DNA of 60,991 bases, filler included, from Sanchytrium tribonematis (lineage: Eukaryota), in NCBI GenBank assembly GCA_018985235.1. It is 11 parts of 11 records of this genome, joined end to end, with 100 filler letters (N's around TTAATTAATTAA, not from the genome) between each part and the next. Parts side by side here need not be neighbours in the genome. Positions count along the whole stretch, not along the records: positions 5,613 to 11,123 come from JADGIG010000601.1; 10 more parts are not named here. One strand, given 5' to 3'. Shown here one piece after another: positions 4,415 to 37,524 of the stretch. Within the stretch, counting starts at the first letter, position 1; every line of letters starts with the position of its first letter. A model generated the notes under the pieces. That model was given only the letters and a program-made list of their open reading frames with translations. It searched no databases and was not told the origin of the DNA. The position numbers were made by a program, and so were the translations under genes.

Positions 4415-5512
4415 TTATTGACTCTCCAAATAATCTGTTTGATGTGACAAATTCGTGCTTTCTCTATTCCTCTTAAAATACACCATCATTTTATCACTAA
4501 ATGGTTTCGATATCCATCCCAATATCAATGCAGATATCACCAATTTGATAATTGCAGTAATGTTTAAATAAAATAAATTGGATTTTGCTACTAAATTCGA
4601 ATCTAAAGTAGATAGGATAGTCGTAAAGGGAATTTCTGATACCATTGATGTTGCATAAGTTTTAAATGTACTAGATGCATCAGATGCTACTGAAATAGTG
4701 CTAGTTGACTTGATATTGTAGATATTCCGAGTTTGTATTTTTGCAGGAGATGTCGATAAAACAATGGTTTCTCCTTTTGAGATAGAATATTTGGATTCAA
4801 CAGTCGTTGTTTGACTGGGTGATTGAATGGTTAATTGCGTAGATGATGTGTATAATTGATTCATTGTCGATGTACTCGTTGATTCCCTATTCAAGGTAGT
4901 CTGAGCAGTAGTTGCAAATGTAAAACGAGTAGTCATTGGCATCGTTGTAAATATCCGACTAGCTGCCAATGTGCAATTATAATTCAAATCTATTATAGTA
5001 GGCACCCTTTGTTGATTCATGGTACATTTACCAGATGGATTATTGGTTAGTAAATTATTAGTCAAATTACATGATTTTAAATATTGATCACCAATTATGG
5101 CAACATTTGTGAAAGAATTGCCAATTAAAGATATTTTGGTGGGATTAGTAAATGAAATATTGCCAATAAACTGATTATTATCAATGATGAGTGAAGATAA
5201 AGTGAGTGGAATTGATAAACAGCCATAAAAATTATTATTACTAGCTTCTAATTCTTGCAACCAATTGGGGATTTCAATGGGACCATGAAATTGATTATTG
5301 CTAATATAAAGACGCATGATATTACCCGGTGGAATTATTGGCAATTTGCCAGAAAATTGATTATTTCTCACATCCAAGTGGGAAATTGAATTTGGTAAAT
5401 TGGGTAGTGCACCATAAAATTGATTATTTTGCAAGTTTAATTGTCTTATTACAGGTGGTAAATTGGAAATCATGCTGTTGAATTGATTGTTATTCAATGT
5501 GAGCGTATTTAG
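4415..5512 (-). CDS. LRR surface protein, 5' end cut by contig edge
   Basis: LxxxNNQFxG repeats, CNLTNN C-cap, Thr/Ser stalk, C-terminal TM helix; frame open to the contig edge. Confidence 0.9.
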   Translation of the reverse strand, partial: LNTLTLNNNQFNSMISNLPPVIRQLNLQNNQFYGALPNLPNSISHLDVRNNQFSGKLPIIPPGNIMRLYISNNQFHGPIEIPNWLQELEASNNNFYGCLSIPLTLSSLIIDNNQFIGNISFTNPTKISLIGNSFTNVAIIGDQYLKSCNLTNNLLTNNPSGKCTMNQQRVPTIIDLNYNCTLAASRIFTTMPMTTRFTFATTAQTTLNRESTSTSTMNQLYTSSTQLTIQSPSQTTTVESKYSISKGETIVLSTSPAKIQTRNIYNIKSTSTISVASDASSTFKTYATSMVSEIPFTTILSTLDSNLVAKSNLFYLNITAIIKLVISALILGWISKPFSDKMMVYFKRNRESTNLSHQTDYLESQ

Positions 5513-5612: not shown

Positions 5613-5790
5613 TGTTTTACAAAATATTCTTCAGCTCGATTTCCTAATGAATTTAATACGACAGGGACTGCTGTTTTCATATCCACGATAGAAGAAGGAC
5701 AATTTTCATTCCCATGCCATTTATATTTACCATAAATCAAATTGGATCTTTTACATTTGGAAATGCAGTCACGAATGACAACCAAATCAT
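5613..5790 (-). pseudogene. Frameshifted 5' part of a paralogue of the 9166-10767 gene
   Basis: ATG at 5790 reads MIWLSFVTAFPNVKDPI* versus MIWLPFIIAL at 10767, with shared upstream DNA; a second frame runs to the contig edge. Confidence 0.55.
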
Positions 5791-5809
5791 GTTTGACCCT
5801 ATTGTACAA
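5773..5809 (+). repeat. 37-nt direct repeat, copy 1 (copy 2 at 10750-10786)
   Basis: gaatg[a/g]caaccaaatcatgtttga[c/t]cctattgtacaa, 35/37 identical; spans the 5' leader, ATG and first codons of both genes. Confidence 0.95.
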
Positions 5810-5827: not shown

Positions 5828-6181
5828 TTATTCAATTCTTTGTCTTTTACTTGCAGGTTCTCCTTTGATTTCATTCAAAATACCATCCAAATTATATTGA
5901 TTAATGATGAGATTAATCCACTGTTCTCCAGTCATGGATCCATTTAATGGATTATTGATGCTATTTGGAGTAGTTGTGTAGATTTCATCTAGTCGCTGTT
6001 TCATATTTGTATCATGTGAATGACTCTTTAAGAATTCCATCATATATTCCCATACAGTTCTTGATGAATTATCATACGCATTTAAAGAATAATATTTGTA
6101 TAAATTGGCTAATGAGTTGATTTGTGATAATTCAGGGTCACCGGGAGGTTTTGAAAAGGTTGCAATTAATCTTGAATTCAT
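5828..6181 (-). CDS. Hypothetical protein or gene fragment with WEYM helical module and basic C-terminus
   Basis: 117-aa ORF; LYKYYSLNAYDNSSRTVWEYMMEFLKSH; ends PASKRQRIE (NLS-like). Upstream sequence looks like decayed coding DNA. Confidence 0.55.
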   Translation of the reverse strand: MNSRLIATFSKPPGDPELSQINSLANLYKYYSLNAYDNSSRTVWEYMMEFLKSHSHDTNMKQRLDEIYTTTPNSINNPLNGSMTGEQWINLIINQYNLDGILNEIKGEPASKRQRIE

Positions 6182-6278
6182 GGTTCTTTTTGTAGTTCTA
6201 TGATATATAATTGCTGTAACTTAGTATTTGAAGAGAGTTCTGATAAAGATGGCATGGAAACAGCAGCTCCATTTTGAG

Positions 6279-6302
6279 GAAGAAGAAGAAGAAGAATTTA
6301 TT
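6279..6302 (-). repeat. AATAAA immediately followed by (TTC)6; candidate retroelement 3' tail
   Basis: Plus strand (GAA)6 at 6279-6296 and TTTATT at 6297-6302, about 50 nt past the RT stop codon. Confidence 0.6.
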
Positions 6303-6350
6303 AAAGGGGTTTTTAAATGTCAATAACATTTAGGAAACACCTGATTAGGA

Positions 6351-8969
6351 TTAATGAAGTCTCATAATTCTCATAAATTCTCTTACCCTTGTATTTAATA
6401 TTAATTTATGTCTGGTATTTAATCTGTCCAAATTCAGACTATTTTGGAATAAAAATAAATTATTCTGCAACTTTTTTTTCATTGATGATACTGAATCAAA
6501 TGGTATAACAAAAGCATTGTGTGCATTTTTGCTTAACCAGTCTGCTCTATCATTTAAATAATTGCCATTATGCCCTTTACACCATATAATTTGTAGTGTA
6601 TTTTGAGAAATAAATTGATTGATATGTGGATATGCTTTATGTAAAGCATGTTTAGATGGATCATTACCTTTTAATAAATAATTAGCAACCTTTACGGATG
6701 CTTGATTATCACAATAAATCCGAAATTTTGATAAATGCAAATGATTGGCCAATTCCAAACATTTATCAATTCCAATACATTCTAATTCAGTGGATGAAGG
6801 AATGTTGTAATTGGATGTATTTTGCAATTTAAATTGATATTCATTAATTATATTAATTGAGTTTGGTGCAGATAAAGTGATTCCAATCCCCATATAATTG
6901 CCATTTAAACTGGCATCCGTCATAAATGTGTATCCATTGTAGTTACAATCAATTGTATTGGAATATTCGTGATCATTTTCATTATTTGAAGCTGGTGGCT
7001 GCATTTGTCGATTTGTGAGTGATGGCAAATAGTCAAAAAATCCCCTATTGTTTTGAAAACATTGCAACTTTTTTTGCACATATGGATGAAATTGTCGACA
7101 AATACGGCAAGTATTACGATCATTGGGTCTGAAATCCCATTTCAATAATTTTGATATTCCCGAATGTGGGTTTTCAATAATATACGGATGAAATTTGAAT
7201 AAACCACTTTCACGTGAAAATGATACGTTAGAATAATCTTTTCCAAATCTCCAACTGTAATGCACTTCTTGTTTCTTTCTCAAATACGTATTTCGTTTGA
7301 TTGTATTTGGATAAACGCAAATAGATTTTAATAAATTTGTGGGAATTGATTTTATAGAATGAAGAAGTGATTTCATATATTTTCGCACTTTTACTTGAAG
7401 ATTCTTGTGCTGTGTATCTTTAAACATGACATTCTGAAAACCGAAATCAATGCACGGCGTCAGGTGAGATGTCAATAATGTACTGCATATTTCTAGGGGT
7501 AAACCCAAACGAAAGACACCCAATTTGCGCAATTCGTGCATTTTACAATTCATTCTCTCTAATTTCTTATTAAACATCATTTTTCTATCTATTCCCGACA
7601 AATTTACCCAATATCCCAAATATCGTTGCGTATTTGAAGTGACTAAAATCCCTCTAATTGATGGCTCTAAACGATTATTTGAAGTAATGATGACACTTTT
7701 CTGAATACTAATACTTAATCCAATCACATTTGCACACTCAATGATTTGGTCTATGGCTTCTTCCAATGCTTCTTTGGAATAACAGAGTAGCGCAATATCA
7801 TCAGCATAGAAAATAGATCTGACTGATTCATTCTGCACCAAGTATAAGTCATTTAAACAGTAGGCAAAGATGGATGGTGACAAACTGGATCCCTGCGGGA
7901 TGCCAGATGTCGTATTTATTTTTTCACTCATTTTTTGTAATAACATCATAGATTGATTTGTGATTCGGACTATGTGCAAGGCTAATCTGACGAGGTATTT
8001 GTTATACTGCTGATACAAATTCAATAAATACGACCTATTGATATTGTCGTAGGCCTTCTTTAGGTCAATCAGACAAATGTATTTTACTCTTTCATGATTC
8101 CGATTTCTACTACTGATGATTCTTGAAAAGTGGGATAATGCATCATGTATGCTGGATTTACTAGCAAATCCAAATTGATTTGCTGGAAATCGGATATGTA
8201 TGGTATGGTAAATGTAGTACTCAAATAATTTTCGAATAGTGTATAAAAGGCTGATACCACGGTGTTGATCCATTCCGGCTGCATTTGTGACTTTAGGAAT
8301 TGGAATGAGTGTAGAATCACCAAATTGGGTTGGTACAAAACCAGTAGAGATCATTAATTGTAAAATATTTTTTAAAATATTTTTTAACATTTCTCCTCCA
8401 AACTTGATACTTTCATTTGGAATATCACGAAATCCATATGATTTATGATTTGGCAGCCATTTGATGCAATTGTTGAATACGACGTCATCGATTGTGTGAG
8501 TGTCCCCAAAAGGCACAATCTTTTCAATGGATTTTTTCAAAGCAATGATTTGTTGAGAATGCGATGCATCTGGAAAACGGTAGAGAAAATCAAGTCCAAA
8601 ATCTCTAATAATTTTTAAAAAATGCTTCATTTCGTGTTTTTTAATATGGCCAATTAATGCTTTAAACATATATTCCCAAATGGTAGTGGGATCATTTTCT
8701 AAATTAGCATTCTTAACAATTAAACTAAACAAATCAAATATGGGTGTATTTACAATGATGCCTGCATCTAAATGTAAAGCAGGAATGGTTTTCTCATAAG
8801 CTTCACTTCTGGGTGGTCGTTTTTGAATTGGTGGTTTTACATGTTTATCAGATCTTTCCCAAATATTTTTAATCCAGTTTTTAAATTCGGATTGACTCAA
8901 ACTCGATATCTGCAGAATAGAAGGAATTTCCATTTTGCTTTTTTGGTTTTCATCAATTATTTTCTTCAT
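6351..8969 (-). mobile_element. Non-LTR-type reverse transcriptase + RNase H ORF, no endonuclease seen
   Basis: RT motifs LIPIPK, HRGISLL, NQFGF, IDLKKAYD, GIPQGSSLSP, FYADD, RYLG; CRIC...H...C knuckle-like motif; RNase HI motifs TDAS, ELE, YCDN, WCKGHNGNYLNDRAD. 872 codons, uninterrupted. Confidence 0.92.
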
Positions 8970-9165
8970 TTAACTGATCTTCCGGTGATCTCATTAAAGA
9001 AAGGTCGTGCTCATTCACTTGCTGCATTGAATCTTTTATTCGCTTTAATAAAACAGACACTTTATCTTTCTTATCATTTTGTGACACCACCGTGATCCAT
9101 TCTGCAATTGATTGTTTGATACATTTTAGTTCTTCAAATCTGGTAATTTAATGTAAAATTTTTTA

Positions 9166-10767
9166 TTATAGATTAAGTATCTCCTTAGGTTTTCTTAGTC
9201 TTTTACTTGCATTTTCTGTTTCTCCTAAATTTCCTTTTTTTCGTCGTCTTTTCCCTGCATTTGCTGATACTCTTTCTCCTTTTCTTTTATTTTTCAAGTT
9301 TAATGGTTCTTTTATTTCCACCAATTCAGTATATTCATCAGTAATTGTAGACCAATATTGATAATATACAGCATTATCATAATTAATCAATAATGCCTCA
9401 TAATTTTCATTAATTAAATCCAACCAAGATTCATAAAAATATTCAGATTGGTATTTCATTACCAATAAAGACGGTAATTCATCAGTTGTACCTAGAAATT
9501 GTTCATGTAATATCAATCTAATAAGTAGCATGAATTGAATATCAAATGAATCAATTCTCTTCAATTTAATTAAATCAATGGCCATTTGTTCAATTTCTTG
9601 CAACATATTTTTCATTTTATTCTTGTGCACCACATCTTGTGGAATATGTCTCTTAAATTCATTAAATAATTGAATCCATGACTCAATTGGAAGATGGTCT
9701 GGTCGGCTAAGTGCATAATCATGAAATAACAAGTATATTTTAGTAGTTTGAATGTGAGTATCCAAGTCATATTTAATCATATCTATAGGTTTAGTCGCTC
9801 TTAATTCATCCCATAATGAAGAATTCAATCTTTTTGTCTTTTTCAATTCCGTATTCCCCTCACTTTTAAGAGCTTTTAATTTTCTGATTTTTAAAGCTGT
9901 AACACTAACTGGCAACATTTCCGTAATTTCCATATATTCTATTAGTTCATTAAAGAACCCATTCCATAAATAAGTGGGTGATTTATCGGAATTCTTGTGA
10001 AAATATTGGTTGTGCATCATCATTAATGACTCGTTTAAGATATTGACACCAAAATTTGAATCTATTTTCAATTTTTCAAGTGTTGTGGTTTTTAATTCAT
10101 TTAATAAATCATCAATTTCTCCTTTGCTTTTAAATTTAGAAATTCCTCTTTTTTGAAGATATTCCAAATTATTGATTATCTTGAAGGATTCACTCACTTG
10201 TGCATTTTTAACAAAAGTCATTAATTCATTTATAAATCCATTCCAAATAATAGAGGGTGGCGTATTTTGATTCAACATGAAATATTCATTGTGGAAAATA
10301 ATCAATTTTGTATGGAATAGATCCTTATCCTCTCTGTTTTGCAAATTCAAAACAGAATCAGGATGTGTTTGAAATGGCTCATTTGCTTTCTTTGCTCGTT
10401 GCTCAATGGTTTTTCTCCAATTTTGAGATACTTCTTTACTCATAAATGCAAATGAGGGCATATTTTCCATAGTACCATCAGCTTTATTCTGCTTTTGATT
10501 AATTAAACCAGTGATTATATCAAATTGTGACTTGAAAGATGGAATTCTTTGTATAAAAGTGGAACATTTAATGATTTTATCTACCAAATACTGTCCAGAA
10601 TCATTTTTCTGTGATTCATTGAGTAAATTATAGAATATTTCCCATGGCGATGAAAATGGTGATTGCTGGACACGTAGATGGAATTGTTGTAGAATTGGTA
10701 AGTCCTTTTGACTATCAGACGAGTCGTCTTTTATTAAAAGTGCAATGATGAATGGCAACCAAATCAT
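9166..10767 (-). CDS. Putative secreted repeat protein with basic NLS-like C-terminus
   Basis: First ATG at 10767 gives MIWLPFIIALLI; about 4 repeats of H...P-x0-4-W..F.N; ends KNKRKGE...GKRRRKK...KRLRKPK. Confidence 0.75.
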   Translation of the reverse strand: MIWLPFIIALLIKDDSSDSQKDLPILQQFHLRVQQSPFSSPWEIFYNLLNESQKNDSGQYLVDKIIKCSTFIQRIPSFKSQFDIITGLINQKQNKADGTMENMPSFAFMSKEVSQNWRKTIEQRAKKANEPFQTHPDSVLNLQNREDKDLFHTKLIIFHNEYFMLNQNTPPSIIWNGFINELMTFVKNAQVSESFKIINNLEYLQKRGISKFKSKGEIDDLLNELKTTTLEKLKIDSNFGVNILNESLMMMHNQYFHKNSDKSPTYLWNGFFNELIEYMEITEMLPVSVTALKIRKLKALKSEGNTELKKTKRLNSSLWDELRATKPIDMIKYDLDTHIQTTKIYLLFHDYALSRPDHLPIESWIQLFNEFKRHIPQDVVHKNKMKNMLQEIEQMAIDLIKLKRIDSFDIQFMLLIRLILHEQFLGTTDELPSLLVMKYQSEYFYESWLDLINENYEALLINYDNAVYYQYWSTITDEYTELVEIKEPLNLKNKRKGERVSANAGKRRRKKGNLGETENASKRLRKPKEILNL

Positions 10768-10867
10768 GTTTGATCCTATTGTACAAATAACTCCCAATTG
10801 TGGGGATGTTTGTGCGACTATTTGAGACAATTGGAAATGACAGATATAATCAATCAGTTTTGTTTAT

Positions 10868-11123
10868 TTAATGATGCTTCTTTTTTTGTTTCTTCTTTGG
10901 AGAAAATAGAATTTTTAATTCTTCCTCACTCAAATCAGTTATTTGTAAATTGGGAAGTCCATTAATGTGTTGATTAATAACAGACTCATCTGCTTCTGGA
11001 CCATCGAAGAGTTTTGCAAAAGTCATTCCTGTAGATGGGCTATTAATCTTTTTTTTCCTTTTACTTTTTTCTCCGTTTGCCTTTTGCTTGTATCTTGCAA
11101 CTCGTTGATAAATAGCATCTCGC
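10868..11123 (-). CDS. C-terminal fragment of an upstream gene with a basic tail (not in ORF track)
   Basis: Open from the contig edge: RDAIYQRVARYKQKANGEKSKRKKK...FSPKRRNKKKKHH*, followed by AATAAA. Confidence 0.6.
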
Positions 11124-12223: not shown

Positions 12224-13412
12224 ATGATTGCTTTATTTTCTCATTTGATTGCAGCAGTATCACTTGATTGTCCAAAATTGATTCCATTTGCGCAGCAATT
12301 GAATATGCATATCGTGAATACCACTATTTGGAATCAAATGAATGTGGATTGTTGTTTAGCAGCAGGTGTGACTTGTAACAATAACAAGGTGATTGTAATT
12401 CATTGGGGTGATTTGAGATTAAATGGTACTTTAAATGGCAATTTGACAGGGTTATCAGCACTGTTTACGCTGGATTTGTCCAATAATTTGATAAATGGAT
12501 CCATTTCTACATTATTACCAAACAATTTAAACTCTCTACATGTAGAAGGTAATTATTTAAATGGCACATTGACAAATTGGACATTCCCTCCTAAATTACA
12601 GAGCTTATTTATCAATTCAAATCAATTTACAGGATCTTTACCATCTGGTATCTCTCAATTGACACAATTAAATGCCAATTACAATCAATTTAGTGGGATT
12701 GTACCCTATTTGCCACCGAATTTCAACGGACTCGCTGTGGGGAATAATTTGTTGACTGGGTTTGTGAATATTCCACCATTTTTAAAACAATTATATATGG
12801 GTCGCAATTTATTGACTGGTGAATTGCCAATCATGCCAGACTCATTAAGTGTCATATTTATAGGTGGAAATCAATTTACTGGGACAATTAGTGCCTATAA
12901 ACCTCAATATTTGTGGATCAGTGACAATTTATTTACTGGTTTGAATATTACAGATTATTCTGCAATACTTCCAAATCAATGTTCTATTGCTAATAATCCA
13001 TTATTAAGAGCATCTAATTTGCCACCACCAGGTCTTTGTTTTGAAACAGGTCTTTATTCTCTTCAAACGACTCAAGCATCTGGTATATTATATTCATTTA
13101 GTTGTCACTAGAATATTTTACAAGCAGAATACAAGTGCATTGCATCTAGAAACAACTTTATCTAAAATACTTGTTCAAAATAGTTTGTTTTTAAATAGCA
13201 CAAACACTTTGATTTCATATCATTTTGAGATGCACCAACCACCGTTTGAATGGAATATCTTTATGATGATTCGAATATTCATCAATTTACTGGTTATTTC
13301 ATTCAATATCAGATATCTTCCATTTAAAAGATTGAAAACACAATTGATTAAAGAGATTCCAACTCACAGCAAGGAATTTAGTACTCTACCAAGTGAGAAA
13401 CAATCTAAATGA
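12224..13412 (+). CDS. LRR receptor-like membrane protein; exons 12224-13082 and 13102-13412
   Basis: Signal-like N-terminus, SLDC...DCC cap, LRRs, CSIANNPL cap; a 19-nt intron joins the two track ORFs and adds a TM helix and short tail. Confidence 0.9.
13083..13101 (+). other. 19-nt spliceosomal intron (predicted)
   Basis: GTATATTATATTCATTTAG; removal fuses ORF 12224 in frame to ORF 13041-13412. Confidence 0.8.
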
Positions 13413-23718: not shown

Positions 23719-24996
23719 ATGTTTTTGACCATTTTAAACGCTCTACAGGTCTCTATAGACTGTGAATCCGTGTATTATCTATCCATGTCACTCACAAACA
23801 ACAATAAAACCATTTCCAGTCCATATCTATCCAATTGCTGCATCAAAAATGTATTTTGCGTCAATAATCGCGTAGATACCATTTTATGGTACAATCTCAA
23901 GTATTCTGGTACCATCAATAGCACTGCATTATCAAAATTGACTCAATTAACCACATTGGATCTTCATGATAATCAAATTAAAGGACCCATCAATAATTTA
24001 CCCAGTTTACTGACAATTATTGATTTAAGCAATAACTTATTTACTGAATCACTCACATTGCCACCACTGACTCAGTATATTTATATCTCCAACAATGATT
24101 TCTCCAAATTGACTCTAAATGCAAAAATATTAGAAATCCACGCATCCAATAACAATTTAAATCAATCCATCTCCATTCCCAATACGTGTAATCAAATTTA
24201 TTTGGACAATAACCAATTGTATGGCTCATTGAATATCCCATCTATTGCTACAGATGTCTCCATTTTCAATAATTTATTAAATTCTTTGATGATTCCCTCT
24301 AATTCCCAATTACAATCCCTCTATGCGTCTCACAACCATCTCAACCAGGTCTTGAATAGTCAATCATTCCCTCCATCCCTCTCAAATGTTGATTTATCCT
24401 ATAATCAATTATCTGGATCCATCACATTAAATTCTGTAAATTCTGTATATTTACAATTTAATCAACTAAGTGGCATTACCATTAATGATACTAGTAATTT
24501 AATGTCTTATTTACCTGATAAATACTGTGATTTAAGCCATAATGTGTTTCAACATTTATATGAGAATATTTGTGAATATAACACACCATTTGAAGTGACA
24601 GTGGATGCGCCAATGACTCAAACACAAAAGAATCAAGCAATTAGTCCCTATACTAGTCTCACAGGACAGGCTATCCAAACTAAGCAGAATCAACCAAATG
24701 CAGCTAAGTCTGATTCAAACAATGTTTCAATTGATGCAAAATCAACCCATGTGGAAATGCAAGCATCTACACTCAGTGCAATTAGTTCAAGCAGTGATTT
24801 TAATAGTTTATATGTAGTAACATCACAAACAACAGCCACTACCACTACTAGTTTATCTAAAGCTGTAGCAACAACTACTAGCATTTCTTCACAGGTAACA
24901 TCGCATGGGGATCCATTGGCAACCAATACACCTTCTAGTGCTACAAACACAAACATTCAAGTTGTCATGTGCTTTATTTTAATAAATATGATGTGA
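23719..24996 (+). CDS. LRR surface protein with Ser/Thr stalk, possibly GPI-anchored
   Basis: SIDC...NCC cap, LRRs, CDLSHN cap, S/T-rich stalk, hydrophobic extreme C-terminus. Confidence 0.9.
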   Translation: MFLTILNALQVSIDCESVYYLSMSLTNNNKTISSPYLSNCCIKNVFCVNNRVDTILWYNLKYSGTINSTALSKLTQLTTLDLHDNQIKGPINNLPSLLTIIDLSNNLFTESLTLPPLTQYIYISNNDFSKLTLNAKILEIHASNNNLNQSISIPNTCNQIYLDNNQLYGSLNIPSIATDVSIFNNLLNSLMIPSNSQLQSLYASHNHLNQVLNSQSFPPSLSNVDLSYNQLSGSITLNSVNSVYLQFNQLSGITINDTSNLMSYLPDKYCDLSHNVFQHLYENICEYNTPFEVTVDAPMTQTQKNQAISPYTSLTGQAIQTKQNQPNAAKSDSNNVSIDAKSTHVEMQASTLSAISSSSDFNSLYVVTSQTTATTTTSLSKAVATTTSISSQVTSHGDPLATNTPSSATNTNIQVVMCFILINMM

Positions 24997-33455: not shown

Positions 33456-35638
33456 AAATATTCCATATACCTGGAGTAGTAGAGGTCCGACAGCAGATGG
33501 TGATTATGGTGTAAATGTGTATGCACCAGGTTCCGCAATCACGTCTATCCCAAAATATAATTTATTTCCCTCTCAATTAATGAATGGGACCTCCATGAGC
33601 TCTCCTAATATGGCTGGTTGTACAGCATTGTTAAAATGTGCCTTTCCTAAATTAAATAGCTATAGATTGCTGAATTGTATTCAAGGCACCCCAGTGGAAC
33701 AAGATCCTCATTTGCAACCATTTATTCAGGTAGTTAAGACATACGAATATTTGCAGAAAACTGAATCAATTAATTTGGATATACTGTTTCAAATCAAAAC
33801 CTCAAAAGGCAGAGGCATTTATGTGCGAAACGTAAATGAACTTGAAAATTTTTCGGATACCATTAGCATTAGATGCATATTTTTAAATGAATATGATCCA
33901 GAGTTTTGTGAAGTTAATGAGAAGAAACTAAATTTTAATGTTAATTTGAAACTAGTCACTAATTGTAGTTTCTTGAATATACCAAAATATTTGCAGTTAA
34001 ATAACATGGGGCGTTCGTTTGGTATCACTATCAATAAGGATTTAGTCCCTACAGGATTAAATACTGGTGATATCTATGCATATGATGGAGACATCTTGCT
34101 GTTTAAGATTCCAGTAACTGTAATCAATCCAATTATTGGTCTTCCAGATATGACTTTGGAAAAATCTCTATTCCAAGGAGGCACTGTGAAAAGATGGTTT
34201 ATTCAAGTACCGGAGGCAAACTCTATGCATTTAAAATTTAGCTTCAATGAAGGTTTAAATAGTCGATACTATGTTCATTGCCAACAACTTGTGAAAGATT
34301 TCAGACATTCTAAATTTGAAGAGCTTTTTGTAATGGATTGTCAATTCAATACATTGAAGAAGATGAATGTTCTACCAAATACAATTATAGAAGTATTATA
34401 TTTTAATGTAGATTTGTGTCGCTCAATTTTGGAGCTCAATTGGATCGCATGAAATTCAATTGCAATTAGAGTTCCATGGTGTTTTTTCGGAACCAATATG
34501 CTCTACCAACCAAGATTTGAATTTGCTTTTAAGAGCACCGTTGAAGAACGAACATGTCACATTGAGCAGTAATTTGACTCACGAACGACTCATTCTTCAA
34601 CCCACCAAGACTTTAATTAATCCAATGAATGATAGAGATCTGGTGTATCAGGCAGACAATGAGCTTTTATTGACTTACAGTCAGAAATTCGATAAGGAAT
34701 CTACTATTATTGTCAAGACAGCTTTGGATAATTTTCTGTATGACAGTGATTTTACACTTTTGTTGCTATTTTTTAAAGACAAAAAGCTAATTCGAACTCA
34801 AGATGTTTACCCAAAATCCTTCAAATTCCAAGGAGAATTGACAATCAAAGTGCAAATTAGACACAATGATGTTTCCAAATTAAAAGAAGTTAATACGGCT
34901 CTAAACATTGATGTGGAAATTGAAAAACAGAAGATTGAATGGCATGAGGCTTTACAATCCAACAAATCTAAATTTTTAATTAAAAAAGGAAAGGATTTAC
35001 GTTTGTATCAGACCCTGTCATGGAATAAACAAGGTACATTTGTCGGTGTTGTAGAGGCAAATGATTTAAAAATTCCGATTCTTGTGCTCTTGAAATCTAA
35101 ACAAGAAGATAAAAAAGAGACTAAACAAGATACAAAATTGATGGGCTTGGTAGATCAATTGGTCAAGACAGACCATACCTTGAAAATTGATTCTTATTAC
35201 TATGATTCACAAATGATTTTAAATGACAAGGCTGACAAATTTACTAAAAAAGTTGATTTTAAAGAATTACTACTCTCTGTTAGTGGTGTTGACAATGAGT
35301 ATTCAATTTACCAAAATGTGATTGTGAAAGCTTATTGTAAGATGCTTCTGAAAGATCTTAATCAAGAAAAATTTGAGCAAATTTGTCAATTGCAAAAGAA
35401 AAAAGATTGGGTACCGGAAAATGAGAAAGATTTATTGCAATTGATAAAAATGCTGGTTGACAAGCAGCTTTATGGAACTGCAATTAAACATATCGTAGCT
35501 TTTAACAAACAGAAATTGAGTGCTGAATTGTATGCCGAATGGATAAAAATTCTTCAACTTTTAAAATGGGATGAATGGGCAAAGCGTGTGGAACAATTAC
35601 TTGTGCTAGATTGCACTATTGACGCATGCTTATTTTAA
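33456..35638 (+). CDS. TPP2: Tripeptidyl-peptidase II, 5' end cut by contig edge; intron at 34393-34411
   Basis: YTWSSRGPTADG, QLMNGTSMSSPN (catalytic Ser), GRGIYVR; spliced junction gives IIE|ICVAQFWSSIG...LEFHG. Confidence 0.93.
34393..34411 (+). other. 19-nt spliceosomal intron (predicted)
   Basis: GTATTATATTTTAATGTAG; removal restores the conserved TPP2 E.C.AQFWSS.G segment and joins two track ORFs. Confidence 0.9.
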
Positions 35639-36604
35639 ATAAATCGTGCTTAGCATATACCGCGCCAAGTATCTGACCACAGTCACATTTACCGAATTTC
35701 CGATTAATTTTAATTTTTGAGATTCAGTTAATTCACAATCTATTTTATAGGTCTTAGGGAATCCAAATAGAATTAGCAGCTCTTTATGGCTCATAAATCT
35801 GGGCTTTATGCTAATAACATCAGTGGCAGAAAATTCTCTTTGAGATTTACAAAGAAAGGTGCAAATATCTGAATCTGTTAGTAAAGAGCCACAACCTATC
35901 AAATTTTTGGAGCCATATGATTTTGTTATTGTGGAAGAGTGATTGCAGCTTAAAGAAACGACGTCATATTTATAAGTTGGAAACTTTGCAATTCTTTCTG
36001 ATGGCACCAGATTGCCTTTTTGATTAACGCCTTCCAAATATTTCCGCAGAGATACTGGTACTACCACCACATCCTCGAAGGGACAAGTGACAAGCTCGAT
36101 TTTTCGAGGATTGTTGTCTTTCCAGGCCAAACAATAAAACCGTTTTCTATAATTAGGAACTCCGATTTGGTGGGGACTCAGTATTGTTGGCTGAATAGAA
36201 TACACTTTTTCAATAAGTATCTGCTCTAGCAATGCGTACGTTTTAGAATCGAAAAACGGTGCTACATTTTCAAGAAATATGAACGATGGTAACCTTTCGA
36301 TTTCCATATCATTTATCAACTTCATTACATGCAGTAATGGCTTGGTTCTTTCATCTTCATTATCCAATCCCTTTCCGCCTTGTGTAAAAGGTTGGCAATT
36401 TGGTGATAATAAAATAATGTCAAAATTTTCAATATCTGCTAATTTTAGGCAAGATATACTCCTATTGCGAGGCTTCTCTTTGAAGTTTGATTTGTACACG
36501 ATGTTGGCATTTTCATTCATATCATAAGATATACATTCGGAGATATATTCTGAAAATCCTTCTCTCAATCCCCCGATTCCAGAAAATAACTCACAACACT
36601 TCAT
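35630..36604 (-). CDS. DNMT2/TRDMT1-family cytosine-5 methyltransferase
   Basis: ELFSGIGG, SPNCQPFT, LENV, LSPHQIGVPNYRKRFY, LIGNSVNV; first matching ATG at 36604. Confidence 0.88.
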   Translation of the reverse strand: MKCCELFSGIGGLREGFSEYISECISYDMNENANIVYKSNFKEKPRNRSISCLKLADIENFDIILLSPNCQPFTQGGKGLDNEDERTKPLLHVMKLINDMEIERLPSFIFLENVAPFFDSKTYALLEQILIEKVYSIQPTILSPHQIGVPNYRKRFYCLAWKDNNPRKIELVTCPFEDVVVVPVSLRKYLEGVNQKGNLVPSERIAKFPTYKYDVVSLSCNHSSTITKSYGSKNLIGCGSLLTDSDICTFLCKSQREFSATDVISIKPRFMSHKELLILFGFPKTYKIDCELTESQKLKLIGNSVNVTVVRYLARYMLSTIYLK

Positions 36605-36642
36605 TCTAACTTGTTTCCACGGAGTTAATACAAACTGGAAAG

Positions 36643-37524
36643 ATGATTGCGCTACTAGGTACTCCATCAAGTGGTATTACCACAATCAAAAGGCTTTTGA
36701 TTGAGTTATATAATTTAAAGATAGTAGATGGGCATGAATTTGAAAATTCGGCCCAATTATTAGAATTTTTGACCCCGCAATGGGATCAGCCATTTTGCAT
36801 AATCAATATTGAAATGCACTGGAAAGCTGTGCAAAAAAGGCCATTTATATGCTTTTGTTTTGTAGACGCTCCGGTGATGACAAGGCTAGAGCGGTTTAGA
36901 TCAAAATTTGGCCATGATCAAGGCTTCCATACAGAAGGAATTCAGCCTGGTAGTCAAATTTATTACGAAATAATCCAAATTTCGCATTTGAAAATAGTGA
37001 ATAACTTTGAATCAATTGATAAGCTAAAAATATATTTAAAGGAGCTTAATCCTGTTCAAGATTCTCTAATTAGACCAGACTGGGACACTTATTTTATTCG
37101 TTTAGCAAGGTTGGGCTCGAAACGTTCGAATTGTATGAAAAGGCAAGTTGGTTGTGTCATTGTGCATAACAATAGAATAGTTTCAACTGGTTATAATGGA
37201 ACTCCTCAAGGAATCAAAAATTGTAGAGACGGTTCTTGTCCTAGATGTAATGGCGGGGCTCCTGCTGGTGTAAATCTAGATACTTGTCTTTGTATCCATG
37301 CTGAAGACAATGCAATTATTGAAGCTGGACGTGTCAGAATTCAACACCCAACCAAATTGTATTGCACACTATTTCCTTGTGTTTCTTGTTCTAAAAAGAT
37401 CGTACAAGTCGGAATATCTGAAGTAATATATGATCATGATTATAACGAGGATTTAAAATCTGTTTGTATGAGCCTCTTTAACGAGGCAAACATTCTTGTT
37501 AGAAAGCATTGTCCAATAAATTGA
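36643..37524 (+). CDS. DCD1: dCMP deaminase
   Basis: RPDWDTYF, RSNCMKRQVG, GYNG, CIHAEDNA, PCVSC; fungal-type N-terminal P-loop-like extension. Confidence 0.93.
   Translation: MIALLGTPSSGITTIKRLLIELYNLKIVDGHEFENSAQLLEFLTPQWDQPFCIINIEMHWKAVQKRPFICFCFVDAPVMTRLERFRSKFGHDQGFHTEGIQPGSQIYYEIIQISHLKIVNNFESIDKLKIYLKELNPVQDSLIRPDWDTYFIRLARLGSKRSNCMKRQVGCVIVHNNRIVSTGYNGTPQGIKNCRDGSCPRCNGGAPAGVNLDTCLCIHAEDNAIIEAGRVRIQHPTKLYCTLFPCVSCSKKIVQVGISEVIYDHDYNEDLKSVCMSLFNEANILVRKHCPIN

Follow-up and report, generated by a model that had tools for sequence, protein, structure and literature searches.

An endonuclease-less RT–RNase H reading frame in Sanchytrium tribonematis as a probable 5'-truncated LINE inserted in frame into an orphan-array gene

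RNase H domains are known in several clades of non-LTR elements (PMC4640811, PMC5348765), and the available portion of the former names the I group, plant L1, Proto1, Dualen and the oomycete Utopia. These clades share with the reading frame described here a non-LTR RT and an RNase H of its own, with a His-type site as against the Arg of the archaeal-like RNase H. Truncation of the 5' end, microhomology and short duplications are ordinary for LINEs according to the accessible text of PMC2666801, where insertions such as ZfL2-2 have lost the 5' half, retain an intact 3' end and carry a short duplication or microhomology. The present locus likewise lacks the 5' half and retains the 3' end, with a candidate short duplication; here, however, the presumed truncation point keeps to the frame of a host ORF and leaves the RT complete. 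An RT ORF lacking an endonuclease is also described for Athena PLEs (available sections of PMC3846280), but these are multi-copy lineages of another RT class, while the loss reported here is specific to one copy in an APE-bearing family.

The window (the whole stretch of DNA analysed, 60,991 nucleotides) joins 11 unrelated contigs of ~5.4–5.5 kb each, longest first, with 100-nt spacers (44 N, 12 bases, 44 N) across which features cannot be read, and the locus is confined to one 5,511-bp contig (5613–11123). The three ATG ORFs of at least 100 aa on this contig all lie on the minus strand; the original prediction that all genes on the contig are co-oriented holds there and does not carry beyond it, the window being 11 joined contigs. 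Rfam gave no matches on the contig at E ≤ 1, and therefore no small-RNA target site there.

The other contigs carry eukaryotic housekeeping genes and LRR proteins (Pfam), as well as an eEF1A that scores best against the 458- and 466-aa chains 1f60 and 5o8w. Four LRR proteins (141–1901, 4415–5473, 12224–13111 and 23719–24996) lie at the ends or in the interiors of 4 of the 11 contigs, which suggests a large LRR family in the genome. Three ORFs for DXD-type glycosyltransferases (PF04488; 16818–18422 and 39123–40280) include two in tandem with DNA similarity. Genes for a C-5 cytosine methylase and a cytidine/dCMP deaminase overlap head to head (35630–37524), beside a tripeptidyl peptidase II gene in two ORFs (33580–34452 and 34625–35638). 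Three inverted duplications (57669–57757/60903–60991, 37781–37860/38818–38897 and 38998–39041/40343–40386), nearly exact and each placed with an arm at the end of a contig, look like amplification or assembly fold-backs.

The ORF under study (6351–8969, minus strand) is uninterrupted and encodes 872 aa. It had been described as intact, with an RT (YADD), a CxxC..H..C motif and an RNase H, and this description was confirmed by ORF calling, Pfam and motif positions: RVT_1 matches residues 224–454 (E 3.8e-29) with YADD at residues 388–391, CX2CX3HX8C occupies residues 621–637, and RNase_H matches residues 680–816 (E 4.6e-06) (Table 1). The best PDB matches of the RT are R2 retrotransposon proteins (E 3.4e-10), and its single-sequence fold (pLDDT 34) was unusable. 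A CX2CX3HX7-9C motif is also present in the related proteins P0015 and P0165 and in 10 of 12 further relatives tested. The order of RT, zinc motif and RNase H is, we presume, reminiscent of plant L1 and Proto1. Roles of the RNase H motif residues D685, E730, D754, H800 and D810 were assigned by motif, from the alignment and the D-E-D-H-D pattern as given in the accessible part of PMC4640811.

Table 1. Features of the locus, in order along the minus strand.
Feature	Position	Strand	Remark
49-bp repeat over start of upstream gene	10738..10786	-	second copy 5761–5809, 88% alike; marks tandem gene array
Upstream orphan gene, 533 aa: hydrophobic N-terminus, three helical W repeats, basic C-terminal tail	9166..10767	-	
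64-codon stop-to-stop frame, 17-base overlap with start of RT ORF; possibly same host gene	8953..9147	-	
Host-like segment, codons 1–152, likely 5' part of interrupted gene; holds W98 helix	8511..8969	-	no family likeness
Haplotype-difference patch over module	8586..8753	.	12 substitutions and one frame-neutral indel pair; flanks invariant
Probable 5'-truncated LINE copy, ~2.23 kb: RT, zinc motif, RNase H, short 3' UTR, tail	6280..8511	-	family identity and branch point at 8511
RT core (Pfam RVT_1)	7608..8300	-	YADD at 7797–7808
CX2CX3HX8C zinc motif	7059..7109	-	between RT and RNase H
RNase H, D-E-D-H-D residues	6522..6932	-	His type, not archaeal Arg type
AATAAA	6297..6302	-	after 48-base 3' UTR
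(TTC)6 tail, likely 3' end of element	6279..6296	-	sole run of at least 5 TTC/GAA in the 61-kb window
CCT, candidate 3-bp target-site duplication	6277..6279	-	partner 8511–8513, also end of 5' flank
33 open codons continuing the frame of the 5' host segment; likely 3' remainder of interrupted gene	6178..6279	-	stop overlaps next ATG
Downstream orphan ORF, 117 aa, one W helix and basic C-terminal tail	5828..6181	-	

Pfam found no APE, RLE or gag match on the contig, an APE profile derived from members of the family itself gave no match at E ≤ 1 in 474 window frames, and two APE-bearing relatives used as tblastn queries aligned with the contig only from the RT start onward. The claim that the RT is preceded by no APE, followed by no restriction-like endonuclease and accompanied by no gag-like ORF was thus upheld; the 872-codon ORF lacks the APE or RLE endonuclease of its own that an autonomous LINE encodes. 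A profile of the six long relatives matches solved L1 endonuclease domains (E 1e-13), and Pfam Exo_endo_phos matches five of the six with a best E of 0.0014, below its curated cut-off.

These relatives were obtained from a protein search of 1.84 billion representatives, in which P0015 (1,599 aa; 50% identity, E 4.6e-218) was the best of 20,857 hits and aligned from query residue 154 to the end. The second long family member is P0165 (1,584 aa, 50% identity). Both are from EukProt EP00834 (P002881 and P006013, respectively) and are named Sanchytrium tribonematis. Together with P0029, P0030, P0069 and P0131 they form a distinct LINE lineage with the order APE–RT–CX2CX3HX8C–RNase H; one of the six has a weak ubiquitin match (E 0.073). 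P0015 and P0165 consist of a single ORF of ~1,590 aa, with an extension of ~470 aa that ends in a hydrophobic stretch just before the APE.

A FastTree phylogeny was constructed for the RT domains of 141 of 166 proteins, 25 being left out with <200 aligned residues. The window RT is sister to P0015 (support 98), then to P0165 (96), inside a clade of 13 rows (99) that includes several long branches and six rows flagged for APE, the flags of five of these coming from the APE profile's own members. In this set, which contained no named reference RTs, the clade stands apart from the other 128 hits. The non-LTR-type RT is nested among APE-bearing elements, and the loss of the endonuclease is therefore specific to the copy in the window, where it is likely the result of truncation and not the sign of a new kind of element. 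The ORF does not count as a novel endonuclease-less element; its nearest RT relatives all belong to the APE-bearing LINE family.

No protein of 479–4,360 aa with >50% identity to the RT was found, and a longer sister copy was thus not seen as a whole protein. A word-index search of proteins of 479–1,526 aa returned only the query and four distant LINE RTs, missing the 1,599-aa relative, and no related loci for the RT were found in viral or metagenome contigs. A literature search, with most subscription journals and Repbase outside its coverage, yielded no description of this LINE family or of the fusion, which leaves absence unproven; in the main text of PMC8371127, as far as it was available, the terms transposable and retrotranspos do not occur.

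The window copy agrees with P0015 and P0165 in the order of its parts (RT, CX2CX3HX8C, RNase H, C-terminal tail), at ~50% identity and with the same end residue. Upstream of these parts the two proteins have ~870–890 residues (the ~470-aa extension, APE and linker), in place of which the window copy has 152 codons unrelated to them. Identity to both proteins is 49–50% between codon 154 and the stop, which coincides with the family's own C-terminus. In blocks of 30 residues, identity to P0015 is 10–20% up to residue 150 and 47–70% over the next 240, and the alignments of P0021 and P0025 likewise start at query residue 154. Residues 1–153 score 22–30 against five family linkers, the same as shuffles; the three closest family linkers score 135–254 among themselves, and a family-linker HMM does not list the frame of codons 1–152. 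Given the shuffle-level linker scores and the jump in identity at ~150, the N-terminus is therefore a replacement and not a decayed linker. An assignment of the W helix to a LINE linker or tower was rejected by the linker scores and by the linker and module HMMs. Atlas features of residues 1–230, a stretch that includes the RT start, point to RT-like clusters (0.94), which we treat as a lead only.

The prediction that the ORF is chimeric was borne out by a sharp breakpoint at codon 153/154, marked both by the jump in identity and by a branch among assembled contigs. The contig is contained in one public sequencing run (share 0.72), which may be its source and not independent biology; the contigs of the run are a separate assembly. 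They were compared over 8400–9190 only, where eight match; 8400–8481 is without cover, and the gap there is uninformative. The run contigs branch exactly at 8511/8512. Record 1 (depth 45.6), fed by two haplotype contigs (depth 21 and 19.5), spans 8482–8585 across the junction; its RT-side overlap of 30 letters misses the 31-letter bridging rule by one. Record 2 (3,039 nt, depth 30.7) is identical to the window over 8482–8511 and then diverges. Its 30 loose letters, read by hand, contain no stop in the RT frame, and 6 of 9 whole codons equal residues 10–18 of P0025, ungapped and including QINE, which window codons 143–151 match at 0 of 9. The length of record 2 fits the 2.6–2.7 kb of ORF upstream of the breakpoint in P0015 and P0165. 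Over these 30 shared and 30 loose letters, the branch at 8511 and the linker-like continuation of record 2 suggest that a longer, closely similar sister copy with a family linker is likely present in the same run; it would presumably carry an APE.

At the other end, the ORF stop is followed by a 48-base 3' UTR, AATAAA and the (TTC)6 tail. The last two lie within 72 bases of the stop, and the tail lies 55 bases past it. A LINE copy is expected to end in poly(A) or a short tandem repeat close behind its ORF, and the window copy does so. Duplication or microhomology at both junctions amounts to the 3-bp CCT only, a match that is weak alone because its chance is ~0.05 for this register given the last C of the tail. 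The three frames after the tail are open for 19, 33 and 26 codons, and the 33-codon frame is the one that continues the 5' segment. Together, CCT and frame continuity would fit an insert of 2.23 kb that divided a host gene and removed little or none of it.

The N-terminal segment had been interpreted as a module common to the flanking genes. With 2,000 shuffles, residues 91–118 of the RT ORF resemble the downstream ORF at p = 0.002 and residues 4–131 resemble the upstream ORF at p = 0.005 (2 of 15 pairs were under 0.05), and these two ORFs rank first and second among 63 other window frames in likeness to the RT ORF N-terminus. An HMM of the three upstream repeats ranked residues 90–120 of the RT ORF first among non-self frames, in the right register (E 0.006), and gave E 2.4 for the downstream ORF; the reverse HMM missed the upstream protein and produced a spurious antisense-frame match at E 0.003. 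The interpretation is thus favoured by the shuffle tests (p 0.002–0.005) and less so by the profiles, in which E 0.006 stands against a spurious 0.003 and no reciprocal match was obtained. The likeness to the neighbours is borderline, and the 'shared module' is best read as the interrupted host gene. A module HMM applied to 164 other fetched proteins found none carrying it (best non-self E 0.066), and the proposed co-occurrence with RT had no second example among them.

Just upstream of the junction, the two haplotypes differ by ~8% over 168 bases, and the window sequence is a mosaic of them across this patch. Codons 73–128 show nine replacement and three silent differences between haplotypes (pN/pS 0.69, p = 0.48 against a neutral share of 0.19; a small sample), and the indel pair over codons 99–101 alters the WEYM letters in one of them. 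There is no stop and no net frameshift among the 14 haplotype differences. For a sample this small, the sequences suggest no significant constraint on the N-terminal segment and exclude none. The patch could represent gene conversion from a paralogue or diversifying change. The presence of the junction on both haplotypes despite the ~8% local difference could mean that some time has passed since the fusion, yet the 719 codons of the LINE part contain no stop.

For the upstream 533-aa protein, neither a homologue nor related loci were found, and its repeats, modelled as all-helical with low confidence (pLDDT 54), had no PDB fold match at E ≤ 0.001. The 3' ends of the downstream ORF and the upstream gene are identical at 23 of 26 bases. 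The two copies of the 49-bp repeat differ in their open frame: at the second copy the open frame runs on to the contig end (5818–5613), and the frame matching the start of the upstream gene stops after 17 codons. Membership of a shared gene family is better shown by this DNA similarity between the neighbours (the 49-bp repeat and the 23/26 bases) than by the module. A basic C-terminal tail occurs in the upstream protein, the downstream ORF and a cut ORF (10868–11123). The 64-codon frame overlapping the RT ORF start showed no significant likeness to the neighbours (p 0.42–0.84). The contig is very densely filled with co-oriented orphan frames, with overlapping stop and start at 6178–6181 and 8953–8969, for which short introns and decay of array genes are both possible. 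The term 'effector-like' for the neighbours reflects resemblance (hydrophobic N-terminus, basic tail) and, with no homologue or fold match, appears not supported. An orphan tandem gene family is one by-product of this analysis.

The locus combines a sharp breakpoint, an RT that belongs to an APE-bearing family, a second sequence joining the same RT start, and an end marked by AATAAA and (TTC)6. The ORF is a chimera, a host-like 152-codon segment joined to the RT–zinc–RNase H half of an APE-type LINE, and we regard it as probable that it arose from a 5'-truncated copy inserted by chance in frame into an orphan-array gene. A longer LINE might instead have inserted first, a later deletion or recombination removing its 5' half and part of the host gene and leaving an in-frame junction. 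The shortness of the duplication and a junction common to both haplotypes agree with this route, but the same three bases at both ends and the continuity of the 33-codon frame are what is expected if no host DNA was lost, and we consider the route improbable. It also seems rather improbable that the structure is an assembly effect, with an RT body that merges two near-identical copies and an 872-codon frame, or a pairing of 5' and 3' flanks, that does not exist on one molecule. Two contigs do converge at 8482–8511, the window is a haplotype mosaic nearby and elsewhere in it contig ends carry three inverted duplications; against this, the junction is present in an independent assembly at the full depth of 45.6, which is close to that of the haplotype contigs (21 and 19.5) taken together. 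The two flanks, moreover, fit each other in frame as well as in target bases, and both have likeness to one gene family.

Retention by selection is a further alternative, in which a young domesticated chimera with a host-family N-terminus and an active RT/RNase H would be transcribed from the host promoter. All catalytic motifs are intact, the fusion is in frame and in sense, and it occurs on both haplotypes free of stops and net frameshifts; however, the N-terminal segment is without significant constraint in its small sample, the likely closely similar longer copy would account for the intactness, and the other fetched proteins offer no second example. This alternative strikes us as rather doubtful, and domestication of the RT appears unsupported by the sequence comparisons. 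The least probable reading, to which we give hardly any weight, is a retroelement lineage without an endonuclease, to which capture of the module would have given a new 5' end and which would spread or shuffle the gene family; retroposition of that family drew no support from the analysis. Replacement of the 5' end is known in LINEs, for UTRs (available part of 10.1101/2022.11.04.512097), and Penelope elements can spread host genes (PMC3846280, likewise in part), yet the contigs, which show presence only, have no branch or loose end on the module side over 8512–9190, the module is absent from all relatives, and the likeness among the neighbours, <30% in protein, goes back much further than the exact match of 30 bases with the sister LINE. 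Several copies or relatives with module plus RT were not encountered among the proteins found and the run contigs, an incomplete copy count. The suggestion that an element captured the module has the direction reversed, as indicated by the APE-bearing relatives, the module-free proteins, the likely sister copy with a normal linker and the LINE tail 55 bases past the stop.

If the ORF arose by truncated insertion, a full-length sister element would have supplied the endonuclease and RT for target-primed reverse transcription, nicking the site and priming on the nick, as LINE biology suggests. cDNA synthesis, starting at the 3' end, would have ended after ~2.2 kb at a point directly upstream of the RT domain. 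Joining would have left a 3-bp duplication or microhomology (CCT) and divided the host gene, with its 5' segment on one side of the insert and 33 codons behind the tail on the other. Sense orientation and correct frame together have a 1-in-6 chance. Without a nicking domain, the window copy could not move unaided. Its open frame needs no selection if the insertion is young or if the assembly merged the copy with its sister. A newborn chimeric gene, in which truncation of the LINE ahead of the RT gave a host promoter an endonuclease-free RT–RNase H to express, with a nuclear-targeted orphan-family N-terminus, retained on both haplotypes and able to reverse-transcribe the family's RNAs, would be an unlikely outcome.

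As it stands, the finding is one of ordinary LINE biology, and it cautions that a truncated insertion which happens to be in frame can pass for an intact RT ORF that lacks an endonuclease and starts with a host-like N-terminus. It also brings to light a distinct APE–RT–zinc–RNase H LINE lineage with a long single ORF, present in Sanchytrium tribonematis and in unnamed metagenome contigs. Should the fusion turn out to be expressed and under constraint, it would offer a rare view of the first step in RT domestication.
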